Shown here in pieces: positions 3 through 57,614 of a DNA stretch of 64,000 nt. The translations under genes were made by a program, and so were the position numbers. Under the pieces are notes generated by a model. It was not told where the DNA came from, searched no databases, and saw only the letters and a program-made list of their open reading frames with translations. The DNA is from an uncultured Myxococcales bacterium (GTDB lineage Bacteria; Myxococcota; UBA4151): contig CAXGWI010000005.1 of assembly GCA_964013405.1 (NCBI GenBank), positions 1-64,000 on the forward strand, in the 5' to 3' direction. The number at the start of each line of letters is the position of its first letter. Within the stretch, counting starts at the first letter, position 1.

Positions 3-998
3 ATCGCCCTTGATGGTGATGGAGATCGCTGGTCTGAGTCCTGCTCAACAGCGACCCATGGCTTAAGTCATTGCAGCACTGAGCGCCCCGCGGAGGAGGG
101 TTGGCAGGGCGGCGAGGCCACGGTGGCGGCGTGGCCCGGGACCTTGGCGGCCCAGGTTCACTGGGGTGAGCGGGCCGGACTCATCGCCTTTCAGCGCCAC
201 GCCAACCGCATCGCATGGTACGATCTGCGCCGGCGCCTGGAGCCCTGCAGCCCCAGCGCTGAGGGGCCCGGCTGCCCCGAGCCGGTCTGCGGCGATGGCG
301 AATTGCAGCGGGAGGAAGTTTGCGAGCCCGGCGCCGGCTGCAGCGATGAGTGCACCCTGGCGGAGTTGCCTGCTGGCGCTCCAGCGGCCGGTTTGGCCAT
401 CCCCTTTGCGCCAGCCACCTTTGCCACCGACCAGGGCGAGGTGCGCTTTCTGCAGGGCATCACCGTGAACCCGATGGTGACCTTGAAGGAAGTCGAGCGG
501 ACAACGGGGAATCAGCACTATGATAATTATGGCACATGGTATCACGATCGTGCCCAGTGCCGCCGCTGGGGTGGCGATTTGCCCAGCGAGCGCCAGTACG
601 AGTGGATCGCCACCGGCGGTGCGGGGCCTTTGGTCCGCCGCTACCCCTGGGGCGACAGCCCCCCCCAGCCGGCGAGCGCCATGTATTTAGGCGCCGATCT
701 GCGCAGCAGCCGAGCGGGCAGCCACTGGTTAGGCACCAGCGTGGAAGGCCTCGCCGACTTGGCGGGGAGCTTTGAGACCAGAGGACACTGGGTGCTCGAC
801 GATAGCGGCAGCGCCCCTTCGGGGATCGCACCCCAGCGGGGGCCCCGGGCCTCGCAGAATTCCGCTCCCCCGAAGAAAGGGGGCTCGAAGACTCTGGGGA
901 TTGATCAACTGCCCTCCGGGGCTCGCTTCACGAGCTTCAACCGCGACACCAGCAACCACGGTGTGGGTCGTTGTGTGTGGTCTGTCGTTTCTCCCTGA
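3..998 (+). CDS. DGR target protein, 5'-partial: Myxococcus Cys-rich repeat plus FGE-sulfatase/C-type lectin-like C-terminal domain carrying the VR
   Basis: Frame is open from base 3, so the gene starts upstream of the window. It has a CGDGELQREEVCEPGAGCSDEC repeat and FGE-like motifs W..C...GGDLPSERQYEW, RRYPWG, GLADLAG, KKGGS and G.GRC. Confidence 0.9.
   Translation: MALDGDGDRWSESCSTATHGLSHCSTERPAEEGWQGGEATVAAWPGTLAAQVHWGERAGLIAFQRHANRIAWYDLRRRLEPCSPSAEGPGCPEPVCGDGELQREEVCEPGAGCSDECTLAELPAGAPAAGLAIPFAPATFATDQGEVRFLQGITVNPMVTLKEVERTTGNQHYDNYGTWYHDRAQCRRWGGDLPSERQYEWIATGGAGPLVRRYPWGDSPPQPASAMYLGADLRSSRAGSHWLGTSVEGLADLAGSFETRGHWVLDDSGSAPSGIAPQRGPRASQNSAPPKKGGSKTLGIDQLPSGARFTSFNRDTSNHGVGRCVWSVVSP
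909..995 (+). repeat. DGR variable region (VR)
   Basis: Matches the reverse complement of 2614-2700 at 77/87 nt and encodes the last 29 residues of the target, LPSGARFTSFNRDTSNHGVGRCVWSVVSP. Confidence 0.97.
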
Positions 999-1008
999 GC
1001 CTTGATGG

Positions 1009-1031
1009 GTCGTCCGCCGGGGGCGGACGAC
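1009..1031 (+). other. GC-rich hairpin/cruciform downstream of VR (DGR target-recognition element)
   Basis: Perfect 10-bp stem GTCGTCCGCC / GGCGGACGAC with a 3-nt GGG loop, 10 nt after the target stop codon. Confidence 0.85.
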
Positions 1032-1045
1032 GCCAAAAAAAAAGC

Positions 1046-2002
1046 TTAGCGGCAGCGCCCAAGGAGCCCCCGGCCTGCCGCCGCTCGGGAGCCCGATTGG
1101 GCCTTCAATTTGCCCCATCGCCGGCGCCGCTTGCTGTTGGCTCGCAGGGGCCGATCTCGCTGCACTAAATAACCAAGAAAGGCGATCGGCTCCGAACTGG
1201 GGCACAAAAAGGTCTTGTTCAAGTTCGGCCGGAGCCGAAGTTTAGCCAATTCCACTTCGATCTCACGATGCAGATTGATGAGGTCCGCTTTCGAACCGCC
1301 AATCAAGAGGTCGTCGACATAGCGAACCCAAGGGAGGCCAGCCGCCTCGATCCGCCGATCAACAGGCATCAGATACAGGTTGCCGAAATGCTGGCTGGTG
1401 AGGTTGCCGACGGGCAGGCCATGGGGCCGAAGGCAGTCAAACAGGCTGTCATCACCAAACCAATGTTGCACTCGCTCGGGGTTGCGACCGTGATCGATGA
1501 TGCAATCCATGACATCGAGATATTGACGATCTTTGATGAGGCGGCGGAGTTGCGCCTTCAGCAGTTCGTGGTCGAGACTACCAAAGTACTTTTTGATGTC
1601 GAGTCGCAACACCCATGGATGGCGCTGAACCAGGCGCCGCGCCCTGCGAAGACCGGCATCCACACCCAGACCCCGGCGATTGGCGACGCAGCCCGATAAA
1701 AGCCTACGCTCAAGTAAAGGCTCGAAAGCGCCACAGAGAATTTGGTGAACCACTCGGTCACGATATGGCGCCGCGCTGATCCAGCGGGGTTTGGGATCGA
1801 GAATGTGAAATTCATAGGGATCACTCGGGCACCAGATACCGGCCGCTAAATCTTCTCGGAGCCGAGCCAGTTCGTCACCCAAGCGGGTATGAAAGCGGAG
1901 CACGCCTTGCTGGTTTCGCTTGCCCCTCCGGGCCCGTTGAGCCGCTTTGAGGAGTTGGGGCCACTCCAAGGCCCACGACAATAAGCCCTGGACTCGCCTC
2001 AT
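1046..2002 (-). CDS. DGR reverse transcriptase (318 aa)
   Basis: RT motifs PKPRWI, YRDRVVH, LRLDIKKYF, GLPVGNLTSQ (the SQ variant typical of DGR RTs), RYVDD and FLGY. ATGA overlap with avd at 1999-2002. Confidence 0.96.
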   Translation of the reverse strand: MRRVQGLLSWALEWPQLLKAAQRARRGKRNQQGVLRFHTRLGDELARLREDLAAGIWCPSDPYEFHILDPKPRWISAAPYRDRVVHQILCGAFEPLLERRLLSGCVANRRGLGVDAGLRRARRLVQRHPWVLRLDIKKYFGSLDHELLKAQLRRLIKDRQYLDVMDCIIDHGRNPERVQHWFGDDSLFDCLRPHGLPVGNLTSQHFGNLYLMPVDRRIEAAGLPWVRYVDDLLIGGSKADLINLHREIEVELAKLRLRPNLNKTFLCPSSEPIAFLGYLVQRDRPLRANSKRRRRWGKLKAQSGSRAAAGRGLLGRCR

Positions 2003-2346
2003 GAACGAGATTGAATCGATCGGCGCCAGCCACCGAGTTGTCGACCGATTTCGGCAATCTCCGTCGCTGCGTAACCGTACTGCCGTTGCGATAATGCCCG
2101 CAGGTCCATGGCCATATGGAGGAGCAAGCGCAGTTCATCCAAGTGCTCATCCGCCTTCGCTAAAGGGCGGTCCAGTCGTTTGGCATGGCGACTGCGAACC
2201 AGGGCCAAACAGAGTTGAGTGCCGGCGGATTGCAGTCGCTCACCCAACTGAAACCGCAAGCAACGGTCGAACTGGACAGCGTGTCGAGTCAGCCAGAGGT
2301 TGAGCTGGTAGCTTCGATCGAGGATGGGAAGGGAAGGGTGCTGCAC
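1999..2346 (-). CDS. avd: DGR accessory variability determinant (Avd, four-helix bundle), about 115 aa
   Basis: LPILDRSYQL..WL, RFQLGERL, LSQRQY and EIGRQLGGW are Avd-like. GTG start at 2346 has AGGAG 7 nt upstream, so the ORF-track start at 2403 is probably too long. Confidence 0.92.
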   Translation of the reverse strand: MQHPSLPILDRSYQLNLWLTRHAVQFDRCLRFQLGERLQSAGTQLCLALVRSRHAKRLDRPLAKADEHLDELRLLLHMAMDLRALSQRQYGYAATEIAEIGRQLGGWRRSIQSRS

Positions 2347-2613
2347 GCGATGACTCCTGGGCGTTAAAAGAGACCGATAACCACAGGCAAATGGCCGAGC
2401 CACTCGCTCTGCTGTAAAACAAAAGACCCCCGGACAAGGGCGCTCGGCCGCGATTGCAGCCTACGAGCCCCGACGTCCGAGGAGACCCGCTAAAGCGAGC
2501 CTGATTTGCTCCGGTGCCGATGGGCACCGAACCTGCGAGAGCGAGCGCTGAACCTCGACTTGGATTCGCCCCACAGCCTTAACCATGGGACCTCGACCGA
2601 CTGTCGAGGGCCT

Positions 2614-2700
2614 GGGAGAAACGACAGACCACACACAACGACCCACACCGTTGTTGTTGTTGTTGCGGTTGTTGTTCGTGTTGCGAGCCCCGGAGGGCAT
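2614..2700 (-). repeat. DGR template repeat (TR), non-coding RNA template
   Basis: Minus strand reads ATG CCC TCC GGG GCT CGC AAC ACG AAC AAC AAC CGC (AAC)x5 GGT GTG GGT CGT TGT GTG TGG TCT GTC GTT TCT CCC. It is an AAC-rich copy of the VR. Confidence 0.97.
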
Positions 2701-2811
2701 ATTGTTTGCGTCCGCACCGCAAGGCGCCTATCGCCGAATCCAAGAGGCGACGCCAATTTTCTGGCTCGACCGCAAATATCCCTTGGTTCCTCGCGACCAC
2801 GGGGAAGAAGC

Positions 2812-4011
2812 CTAAGTCGTGTACTCGCTGTTTAAGGTCACGTAGTTGTGGCCCAGATCGCAGGTCCACAGGCGCCGGCCTTTGTCGCCGTTGTTGAGAT
2901 CGAGGACAAAGCCGTAGCGGCGCTTTTCCATGAGCGCCGAACAGTGAGCCCAATCGGCCGCCACGGGCATGCCCGCTTCGAAGAGCAAGATCGATTCGCC
3001 CTCGGCGGTGAGATGGAGCCGGGCTTTGTCCGGGTCGAACTGGGCTCGGCTGCGGCCCGCCGCCGCCAAAATCCGCCCCCAGTTGGGATCGGCGCCGTGA
3101 AAGGCCGTCTTGCACAACAAGCTGGTGGCCACCGCCCGGGCCGCATCGTCGGCCTGGTCTTTGGTGGCGGCCCCGCTCACTTGGATCTCCACCAAACAGC
3201 GAGCCCCCTCGCCGTCGGCTACCATCTGCTGGGCGACGCTGCGGCAACAGGCGAGCAGCGCCCGCTGAATCTCGGCCAGGGTGTTTTCGCTCAGCGCCTC
3301 GCCCCCATCGGGGCACAGCAGCAGGGCCGTGTCGTTGGTGCTGGTGTCCCCATCCACCACGATGGCATTAAAGCTTTTTCGCACCACCCGGTCCCAGAGA
3401 TCGGCCAGCAACAACTTGGGCAAAGGCGCATCGGTGATGGCAAAAGCCAACATGGTGGCCAGGTTGGGGGCGATCATCCCGGCCCCTTTGCCCACCACCG
3501 TCACCGTGTAGGAACCCACCGTGGCGCTCTGGATTTTGGGGCCTTGATCGGTGGTCATGATGGCCTGGGCAAAAGCCATCAAGCCTTCGTTGCCGTCATT
3601 TAACTGGGAAAAAGCCGCCGGCAGGCCGCCCAACAAAGCCTCGGCGTCGAGGGGGCGACCGATGACCCCGGTGCTCGCCACCTGGATCTCATAGGCCGGA
3701 CAACTTAACTGGCTCGCCACCTGCTGGGCTGTGGCCTCCGCCGCCGCCATCCCCGCCGGGCCCGTGCAGGCATTGGCGTTGCCCGAGTTCACCACCACGG
3801 CCCGGCACCGCTCGCCCGCGCCGTGGGCTCGGCTCAATTGAACCGGCGCAGCCACCACTTGGTTTTGGGTAAAGCGGGCCGCCAAAAGGCCGCTTTTTTC
3901 GGCCACGATGAGCCCTAAATCCAGTTGCCCTTCGCCCTTTAAGCCGCAGTGCACGCCGCTCAGGCGGAAGCCGGGGACAGCCTTCGCCCCCTCGAGCATC
4001 GAGATGGTCAT
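2812..4011 (-). CDS. argJ: Ornithine acetyltransferase / N-acetylglutamate synthase ArgJ
   Basis: NSGNANACTG, KGAGMIAPNLATML (autocleavage site), DGDTSTND, DGEGA, DPNWGRI. Confidence 0.97.
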   Translation of the reverse strand: MTISMLEGAKAVPGFRLSGVHCGLKGEGQLDLGLIVAEKSGLLAARFTQNQVVAAPVQLSRAHGAGERCRAVVVNSGNANACTGPAGMAAAEATAQQVASQLSCPAYEIQVASTGVIGRPLDAEALLGGLPAAFSQLNDGNEGLMAFAQAIMTTDQGPKIQSATVGSYTVTVVGKGAGMIAPNLATMLAFAITDAPLPKLLLADLWDRVVRKSFNAIVVDGDTSTNDTALLLCPDGGEALSENTLAEIQRALLACCRSVAQQMVADGEGARCLVEIQVSGAATKDQADDAARAVATSLLCKTAFHGADPNWGRILAAAGRSRAQFDPDKARLHLTAEGESILLFEAGMPVAADWAHCSALMEKRRYGFVLDLNNGDKGRRLWTCDLGHNYVTLNSEYTT

Positions 4012-55190: not shown

Positions 55191-57614
55191 TCATTCGCCA
55201 TGGGCCGAACGGGTCTCAGCGCTAATCGCATGATCCCAAAGAAGCACCGCGTCGAGATCGCCGGTAAAGGCTCGCTCTAAGCAGGCTTCATCGGCGCCAC
55301 AGCCACCCATGCGTAGAGGTGCTACATTGTTCCTGAGGGTGCCTGTTGCTGGGGCAAAGCCCGCATTCTGGCCCCGCACAAACAAGCTGAGACCCTGGCC
55401 GTCATAGACCGTGCAGAGTTGATTCCACTGGCCGAAGGAGACCGGCATGGTGCCATCGACACGGACCTGACCTTCAAGGGTGGCGATGCTCACCCAGGGG
55501 CGTTGATTACTGGGTTCGATGGCCAGGCGATAGGAGCCCCCCTTCTCGACCACGATAAAGCGCTCTCGCTCCTGCTGGGCCAAGGGGCGCACCCAAGCGC
55601 AAAGGGAGAAGGTATCAAAGCCATCGAGTCGGTCATGATCGGCGATCTCCACATAAGCTCCATCTTGGAAAGCCAAGGCGCCGGCAGGCACTTGGCGCCG
55701 ATCCGCCACCATGGCCGCACCCTGGTTGATGCCGTGGTGCTCATTGCCAGAGGAATCGAGAATATCACCGTCCATGGGATAGCAGGCCATGCTGCCGAGA
55801 CAGGCGGCCCCTGAACGGCAGGTGTTCGAACAAAAGTCATTGTCCTCGTCGTTACCATCATCGCAGTCCTCAACACCGAACCAGATGATCCCATCGCCAC
55901 AGGTCGCCCTTAGACAAGCATCGGTGCAGGCGTCTTCGTCGCCGTCCTGGCCGTCATCACATTCCTCGCCGGCGAAATCATCGAGGATATTGTCGCCACA
56001 GACCGGCTCGCTGCAGTCTCGGCGGCAGGCATCTCGACCTTCTAGGTTGCCATCGTCGCAGGCTTCGTCGTGGTCGACGACGCCATCGCCACACGCCGGG
56101 CGTCGGCAATCGGGACGACAGCCGTCTGTAGGATCTTCGTTACCATCATCGCATTCTTCATCGTGATCGACGCGACCGTTGCCACAGGCTGCTAACTGAC
56201 AGGAGTTGCGACAGCCATCGCTGTCCACGTCATTGCCATCGTCACAGCCCTCGTAGCCGAGTTCACCAGCGCCCCGATTGGTGCGAAGAATTCCATCGCC
56301 ACACCGGGCCCGTCGACAGTCTCGGGTGCAGTCATCGCCATCTTCGTCATTGCCATCATCGCATTCTTCGATCCCGGCCCGCACGATGTTGTCGCCGCAG
56401 CGGGCGGCGACGCAGTCAGTGGTGCAGCCATCGCCGTCGACGCCGTTGCCATCGTCGCATTCTTCGACGCCGGCCCGGACATGGCCGTCGCCGCAGCGGG
56501 GCAACTCGCAGCGAGGCGTACATTCATCGCCGCCTTCCCGGTTGCCGTCATCGCAGAACTCCCGGCCCGGGTGGAGAATTCCATCGCCACATTCGGCTTC
56601 TGCACACTGGTTGGTGCAGTCATCGGTGTTGACTCGATTGCCATCATCACAGGCTTCGTAGCCGATCTCGTTGTCGTTCAGGTCCTGCCGCACGAGCCCA
56701 TCGCCACAGCGGGCAGAGATGCAGTTGTTGAGGCAGCCGTCGAAGGGGTCATCGTTGCCATCATCGCATTCTTCCCCTGGTCCTCGTAGACCGTCGCCAC
56801 AGGCCTCGAGTCGGCAGGTGAATGAGCAGCCATCGCCGCTAAAGGTGTTGCCGTCGTCGCATTCCTCGAAGCCCCGTTCACCGGCCTCGATGTCCGTCCG
56901 TAGAAAGCCATCGCCACATCGGGCCGGGCTGCAATCGTTCAAGCAGCCATCCACATTGGTTAAGTTGCCATCATCACAGCGTTCACCTTCGTCGATCACC
57001 CCGTCACCGCAGGGGGGCAATTGACAGGCCTCATTGCAGTCCTCGCCCCCGTCACATCCTTCACCGGGTTGCACCGTGCCATCGCCGCAGCGGGCCCGCT
57101 GGCACTGACCGTTGCAAAGGTCTTCCTCGATGAGATTTCCGTCATCGCATTGTTCGCTGCCCGGGCTGCCCTCGTCCAAATCCAGTCGCTGGATCCCGTC
57201 GCCGCAGCGGGCCACAAGGCATCGATGGGTGCAGGCGTCGTGGGCCTCCGCATTGCCATCGTCGCAGGCCTCGTAATCTGGCTCGCCTTCAACCCGGTCC
57301 AGCCGCAGGACACCATCCCCGCAACGGGCGATGTGGCAACTGTTCAGGCAGTCGTCCGCGTCGTTGCTGTTGCCATCGTCGCAGGCTTCAAAGCCTTCAT
57401 CGCCCTCGAGAAGGTCGCCTCGGCGAATCCCATCGCCACAGCGAGCCCGCTGGCACTGGTCCGTGCAAGCATCGTCGGCCACCGTGTTGTCGTCGTCACA
57501 TTCTTCGCCGGAATCCAGCAGTCCATCACCACAGACGGGGTCGGGGTCGAGGACGGCGGGAGCCACCTCACAGCCCATGGCGATGAAACCCAAAATCAGA
57601 GAGATACGAGCCAT
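55191..57614 (-). CDS. Lipoprotein with 17 Myxococcus Cys-rich repeats (DUF4215-like) and C-terminal LamG-like domain
   Basis: Lipobox AMGC, 17 CG[DN][GN]...E.CDD...C...C units, then D.SGN.HHG, F...AWVRP, W......YDG, F.G.LD. Confidence 0.9.

Follow-up and report, generated by a model that had tools for sequence, protein, structure and literature searches.

A repeat pair that differs only at template adenines

Two imperfect copies of a sequence, one at the end of a gene and the other in non-coding DNA nearby, raise the question of whether this locus of a marine myxobacterium holds a complete diversity-generating retroelement (DGR), which protein such an element would diversify, and whether it can operate with a reverse transcriptase (RT) that lacks part of its thumb. 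From our analysis of the window (the whole 64,000-nt stretch of DNA), a complete chromosomal DGR in all likelihood generates variants of a large surface protein at its tip, for which a lectin fold is predicted, using an RT without the SWxGH segment. The parts directly seen are the repeats, the adenine-only pattern, the RT, an Avd-like gene, a hairpin, the gene order and the short tail of the RT.

The variable repeat (VR; 909..995, plus strand) and the template repeat (TR; 2614..2700, minus strand), which is non-coding and AAC-rich, form the longest inverted repeat of the window. Recomputing the alignment of the VR with the reverse complement of 2614-2700 gave exactly what the first-pass annotation had claimed, 87 nt with 10 mismatches and no indels. 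The reported restriction of the mismatches to TR adenines was likewise confirmed for 10/10 of them (A>T 4, A>G 3, A>C 3), at window positions 909, 927, 928, 934, 936, 937, 945, 949, 952 and 957, and 0/67 non-A positions are changed between TR and VR. The TR indeed contains the 20 adenines described, distributed in nine AAC codons, one ACG and one ATG. The identical adenine-free 3' end is also present, although it comprises 37 nt (959-995), with the last C counted, instead of 36; the calculated diversity of 4^20 = 1.1e12 DNA variants and 4.6e11 peptides can be reproduced, albeit only as theoretical ceilings. Position 909 is weak evidence, because it lies at the 5' edge and homology breaks at the next upstream base; without it, the peptide ceiling becomes 15^9 x 4, about 1.5e11. 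The chance of all mismatches falling on A is 4.6e-8 (10 in 87 nt), or 2.0e-7 without position 909, and the strictest calculation, limited to the adenine-bearing first 50 nt, gives 1.8e-5 and 4.5e-5, the latter for 49 informative bases. An extra A mismatch occurs at 996 (A in the TR, and T, belonging to the stop codon, in the VR), where the divergence between IMH and IMH* begins.

The genome that contains the window (G000) has 3.9 Mb in 244 contigs and is 94% complete. An adenine-aware scan and blastn comparison of all 244 contigs with the TR retrieved the VR only, and a scan of G000 for the IMH motif found no site besides this VR. FGE paralogues of G000, in contigs C173, C30 and C10, were considered as remote targets and rejected, because they have no match to the TR.

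The pattern had been interpreted as a direct footprint of mutagenic retrohoming. Past retrohoming at this locus does appear well supported, by the adenine-only pattern within a full DGR and because related target proteins hold other residues in their variable region, but present activity is not implied. The adenine-only footprint as such is a textbook DGR hallmark, and hence routine and not new; only A-to-N differences occur in 65% of 372 curated DGRs (PMC5758913), and the A-bias was found across all clades of a global DGR survey (PMC8144416).

The repeats are part of a convergent cassette

The order on the minus strand is argJ (2812..4011), a leader of 111 nt (2701..2811), the TR, a spacer, avd and the RT gene, whose 3' end faces the hairpin of the target gene in a convergent arrangement. 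The argJ gene is a housekeeping neighbour, co-directional with TR-avd-RT and not part of the DGR, and no sigma-70-like promoter was found in the leader. Among five other genomes of the family, an RT and an avd gene were found in G002 only (52% and 58% identical, respectively, to those of G000). The stop codon of the Avd-like accessory gene (1999..2346, minus strand) overlaps the start of the RT gene (ATGA); its own start could be as early as 2403, and was placed at GTG 2346 by comparison with G002. The Avd product matches NF033474 over 103/104 positions (E 1.6e-20), with 73 bits for a cut-off of 80, and scores 39 with Pfam bAvd, for a cut-off of 40.

The spacer RNA downstream of the TR (2347..2613, minus strand) is about 270 nt long, contains blocks conserved in G002 and has no match in Rfam. 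It is strongly folded in G000 (z -5.5 for 2390-2662), and the fold of the G002 spacer is not significant (z -1.7). Directly 3' of the TR there is an IMH*-like segment (2603..2613, minus strand), identical in G002 and different from the copy at the VR side. The spacer of the Bordetella phage RT (bRT) primes cDNA synthesis in cis, via a duplex with the 3' end of the TR (10.1101/2023.10.23.563531), and by analogy we predict that 2559-2553 would be a cis primer pairing with IMH*. The predicted primer segment (2549..2559, minus strand) is invariant in G000 and G002; within it, 2559-2553 can pair with 2609-2603, which lies just behind the TR, about 45 nt upstream, and is also invariant in G002, and in the extended register of this duplex the conserved adenine 2549 adjoins the boundary of TR/VR identity, at 2614. 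The predicted duplex consists of invariant pairs only, from two sequences and with no covariation, and the minimum-energy folds of G000 prefer other pairings.

The IMH-like region at the VR side (959..1006, plus strand) comprises the 37-nt A-free stretch identical to the TR, followed by the stop codon and by an imperfect copy of IMH*. Next to it there is a GC-rich hairpin or cruciform (1009..1031, plus strand), with a 10-bp stem and a 3-nt GGG loop, which occupies the same position as in known DGRs. This GC-rich inverted repeat is present behind the VR only, and not behind the TR; its fold strength is within that of shuffled sequences (z -1.8). The ending stop-N-CCTYGAY recurs behind two targets from genome G004 (there as stop-N-CCTCGAC), each with a hairpin. 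The loops of these hairpins (GGG in G000, CGG in G004:C16 and GGG in G004:C175) match neither of the consensus sequences described, GRNA (PMC3240598) and GRA (PMC4372165); the Bordetella system depends critically on the sequence of this loop, and a GRNA/GRA loop is not a universal criterion for DGRs. Behind the hairpin there is a run of nine adenines (A9; 1035-1043, plus strand), which is one base shorter in contigs of the marine runs X1 and X2.

By analogy with the Bordetella phage, a minus-strand RNA containing leader, TR and spacer would be made, and the RT and Avd would copy the TR from the primer supplied by the spacer (2559-2553 with 2609-2603), misreading adenines. The cDNA would then replace the VR on the opposite strand, with IMH and hairpin marking the recipient; the strand of the target would not need to be that of the TR.

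The variable repeat would end a lectin-fold domain

Only the 3' part of the target gene is available (3..998, plus strand), because the window, and contig C5 with it, begins within the gene; its 5' part was not found in G000 using as query P0001, a relative of 572 aa that is 83% identical to the window target and is itself partial. The deduced product contains a Cys-rich motif and then a C-terminal domain of the FGE type of C-type lectins, at whose coding end the VR would be situated according to the predicted structure. The Pfam FGE-sulfatase match is weak (E 0.015, under the cut-off), and the predicted model (mean pLDDT 71, TM about 0.5) matches the FGE family and the Treponema DGR target TvpA (2y3c, E 2.8e-4). 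FGE-type CLec1 domains are the largest category of DGR targets, with 71/372 (Wu et al., PMC5758913).

The comparison with P0001 shows differences in 8/12 columns of the variable stretch, plus one extra residue, vs. 4/67 columns in the core of the domain, and the flanks LPSGAR and GVGRCVW are identical. Length changes adjoining AAC runs are known in DGRs (PMC5758913). Outside the VR, there are also strong differences from P0001 in two patches, 483-566 (residues 161-188 of the target, 15/28 different) and 888-908 (residues 296-302, 4/7 different), possibly loops close to the binding site that are under diversifying selection by ordinary means.

Residues E, K, Q, M and W are absent from VR-equivalent positions of eight family targets (0/96) and amount to 129/1,224 (10.5%) in 102 control FGE proteins; this count omitted P0005 and P0006, whose ends could not be aligned, as well as two FGE paralogues lacking the RCVW motif. 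Since the eight proteins are kin and a non-NNC paralogue, G002:C12, also shows 0/12, this test is weak and non-specific. At the DNA level, the presence of NNC codons at VR positions separates targets from paralogues better than the residue test, with 11/14 in G000 and 14/14 and 11/14 in two G004 genes, compared to 1/14, 4/14, 7/14 and 5/14 in four further paralogues.

The G002:C12 paralogue (L043:887-6049) is a full-length protein of 1,721 aa with NNC codons in 1/14 positions and no hairpin, and is likely a former or never-targeted copy. Its N-terminus, inspected by eye, resembles that of a lipoprotein, and it also contains a Big_1 (Ig-like) domain and a weak Cys-rich repeat. From the size, lipoprotein-like N-terminus and Ig-like domain of this family paralogue we infer that the G000 target would also be a large, membrane-anchored surface protein. 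Elsewhere in the window, at 55830-57512, there is a long array of Cys-rich repeat units of 93-117 nt each.

Gene order in related bacteria

The G002 contig begins in the TR end and continues with a homologous spacer, avd and the RT gene, and therefore the order TR-spacer-avd-RT is common to G000 and G002. Behind the G002 RT gene there is a peroxiredoxin-like gene (recognised by eye from a motif), and no VR was found in G002 with a pattern derived from its TR end. In the sister genus, the deduced protein P0002 continues from the target VR across the TR spacer without interruption, until a stop codon that overlaps the avd start, and its last 82 aa correspond to the translation of the start of G002:C129 (L021:1-250). 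In the species of P0002 the target is probably located upstream on the same strand, and VR and TR would be either collapsed in the assembly or truly merged; relative to this same-strand layout, the G000 layout would be an inversion of the TR-avd-RT block. The P0002 fusion also prompted us to consider an invertible switch between inverted repeats, which was rejected because the RT gene of G002 is followed by the peroxiredoxin-like gene, and not by a hairpin and a TR, and because no such joint occurs among the contigs of the marine runs compared.

Neither RT nor avd was found in G004, which is 85% complete. This genome contains two target-like genes, L025 (G004:C16:1-1029) and L027 (G004:C175:196-3285), with NNC-rich ends, an IMH-like motif and a hairpin, one of the hairpin stems being only 5 bp long. 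They would be orphaned targets, or else remote ones served by a DGR that is missing from the assembly.

Avd matches were found in 24 of 301 genomes of the phylum, seven of them over the cut-off, and we do not claim the first DGR in Myxococcota; in full-text literature, no paper was found joining DGR with 'Myxococcota' or 'Myxococcales', and there are some with 'myxobacteria'. Thirty Avd loci were scanned with flanks of 1.5 kb, and 17 of them showed an AAC-rich run near avd, downstream of the gene in 16 and upstream in one, that of G000; the 13 loci without such a run include that of G002, whose TR is cut. A TR upstream of a co-directional avd is, therefore, a rare order, present in 1/17 loci of the phylum with a detectable TR. 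A further DGR from the phylum, in G027:C2 (L022:1593-10737), contains three FGE-ended genes around avd-RT, whose N-termini are TIR-like by eye, and has its TR downstream. Searches for RTs were positive in 0/99 candidate stretches of metagenome contigs and in 1/63 of genome contigs, the latter being a distant RT.

A DGR reverse transcriptase without the SWxGH segment

The RT gene (1046..2002, minus strand) encodes a DGR reverse transcriptase of 318 aa without the SWxGH thumb segment. Its motifs are VGNLTSQ, which fits [ILV]GxxxSQ, and YVDD. By sequence, its best solved relative is bRT (E 3.9e-26), on which the RT model can be superimposed with Z 32.1 and an rmsd of 1.6 over 277 residues. Judging from [ILV]GxxxSQ, YxDD and this best solved relative, the enzyme belongs to the DGR class. 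A group II intron RT/maturase was rejected, with 82.7 bits for TIGR04416 vs. a cut-off of 300 and the motif VGNLTSQ instead of QGxxxSP. The window RT conserves R74 of bRT and has, in place of I181, a valine within the [ILV]GxxxSQ signature; residues equivalent to R74 and I181 promote adenine mutagenesis (PMC7826257).

The motif W-x-[GAS]-[HY] occurs near the C-terminus in 108 of the best 120 RT homologues, a set that represents the nearest neighbours of the RT and not all DGR clades, such that short thumbs are possible elsewhere; the 12 homologues without it include the window RT and its three closest relatives. Likewise, a thumb profile built from 76 non-lineage alignment rows matches 39/39 held-out homologues (31-102 bits) and 0/5 RTs of the lineage (E up to 10). 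These five RTs, from the window and four relatives, are 51-53% identical and have in common a short basic tail ending in GxGLLxR. The model of the window RT is confident through one thumb helix (290-303), the tail (304-318) having a pLDDT under 50. Its confident part aligns to residues 2-284 of the 328 of bRT and, if no trimming is applied, the tail can be loosely matched up to 309 in one structure; this tail may partly stand in for the missing thumb segment.

The segment missing from the lineage corresponds to ASWSGH in bRT (301-306). The bRT thumb gates the active site, contacts the primer duplex and is wrapped by an essential RNA ring, and S301, in a numbering that is one off from our residue count, is close to a base of the primer strand (10.1101/2023.10.23.563531). 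The loss of the segment could impair the enzyme, because its place in bRT is approximately that of the residue reported to contact the primer strand. A thumb encoded as a separate piece or in a shifted frame was looked for and not found (best E in six frames, 0.37); there was no SWxGH-like motif behind the RT gene in G000 or G002 and no second RT in G000 (94% complete), and a literature search on DGR thumb truncation retrieved no paper on this by title. Among the related proteins, P0208 is an RT of 400 aa whose frame continues into a TR-like, AAC-rich peptide with a Pfam FGE match, and is probably a read-through into the TR.

A DGR silenced recently, with a real footprint, a defunct short-thumbed RT and a VR that is its frozen product, would agree with the presence of the absent segment in 108 of the other 116 top homologues, with the non-canonical hairpin loop and with the occurrence in G004 of target-like genes, one of them with the 5-bp stem, where RT and avd were not found. 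We consider this unlikely, although deserving attention, for several reasons. The five RTs share the GxGLLxR tail at 51-53% identity, and therefore the shortening of the thumb predates the split of the two genera. The constant ends of TR and VR have since diverged between genera and match within each of them, with GVGRCVW in G000 and GSSRCVW in the G002 TR and in P0003. Additionally, all reading frames are intact and the non-A sites of the repeats are without any difference. That the TR/VR ends are still matched within each genus after the shortening of the thumb suggests that the short-thumbed RT likely works.

The layout in other marine samples

Contigs from 4/19 marine runs were compared with the window, and no contig spans the whole cassette. 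Record 2 from run X1 covers 959-1128, including the constant region, the hairpin and the RT end, with no other letters. Record 32 from run X5 covers 2586-2786, including the spacer end, the whole TR and the leader, although it extends for only 28 letters into the spacer. The joint between leader and argJ is bridged by X1 record 6 and X2 record 16. These records bear on whether the convergent layout could be an assembly artefact, with the 87-nt inverted repeats mis-resolved and a true cassette that is co-directional. The fragmentation of G000 in 244 contigs is in line with this, as is P0002, which joins target and TR spacer in the sister genus and denotes there a same-strand layout or a collapse of VR and TR. 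Nevertheless, X1 record 2 and X5 record 32 bridge their junctions as in the window, and a flip between the repeats would place a hairpin behind the TR, where none is seen, making such an artefact very improbable. X2 record 11, the sole record over the VR, has 13 other letters (positions unlisted), which is about the number for an independent allele, and one record over the TR and its flanks has three other letters.

Lastly, that VR and TR are an ordinary duplication diverged by chance is hardly credible, since it has in its favour only the small number of mismatches and is opposed by probabilities of 5e-8 to 4e-5 and by an AAC-rich, non-coding TR beside a DGR-type RT and Avd.

Comparison with known systems and significance

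The locus shares with the DGR of Bordetella phage BPP-1 (mtd-avd-TR-brt; 8UB7-8UBF) the adenine-only differences between VR and TR, the AAC-rich TR, the fold and signature of the RT, R74 and Avd, as well as IMH/IMH*, a GC hairpin after the stop codon and a structured spacer 3' of the TR. Unlike that of BPP-1, however, the G000 DGR is chromosomal and next to argJ, and its target is on the opposite strand. Its TR lies upstream of avd, and its spacer runs into avd, so that the end of avd cannot be the 5' RNA partner. Moreover, its loop is a 3-nt GGG instead of GRNA, and the confident part of its RT model stops short of the last bRT residues.

Targets of the TvpA type from Treponema denticola (category 'b', PMC5758913) also have a C-terminal VR in an FGE-type C-type-lectin fold and belong to a chromosomal, cellular DGR. 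In contrast to these, the accessory gene in G000 is Avd and not HRDC, one target was found in G000, the terminal motif is GVGRCVW instead of GFRC, and members of the family carry Myxococcus Cys-rich repeats and Ig-like domains. Architecture B3, TR-(avd)-RT, of CPR bacteria (Wu et al., PMC5758913) shares the order of TR first, avd in the middle and RT last, but its avd is on the reverse strand; in G000 and G002 avd is co-directional, the G000 gene overlaps the start of the RT gene, and its host does not belong to the CPR. The location of TR and VR on opposite strands is rare but known (myDGR, PMC6602519; Wu et al.), and G000 shares this layout as one more case. Surveys distinguish 122 (PMC6642488) and 38 (PMC11661182) patterns of DGR cassettes. 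The short thumb of the RT, the position of the TR before avd and the hairpin loops of three bases would together make this lineage a variant among DGRs that merits modest further attention.

If true, a natural RT without SWxGH that still carries out retrohoming would show which contacts of the thumb are dispensable, and would constitute a natural minimal DGR enzyme testing the need for the thumb and for the 'thumb ring' RNA. Very large myxobacterial surface proteins would also be added to the list of DGR targets. More tentatively, and with somewhat less than even confidence, we envisage a marine Myxococcota family with a still-active DGR in which the RT thumb, used by other DGR enzymes for holding the primer, has been mostly lost, with the long, folded spacer RNA before avd or the new basic tail substituting for it. 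Such an element would be rewriting the lectin tips of giant, membrane-anchored proteins of the cell surface, which might act as receptors for prey or particles.
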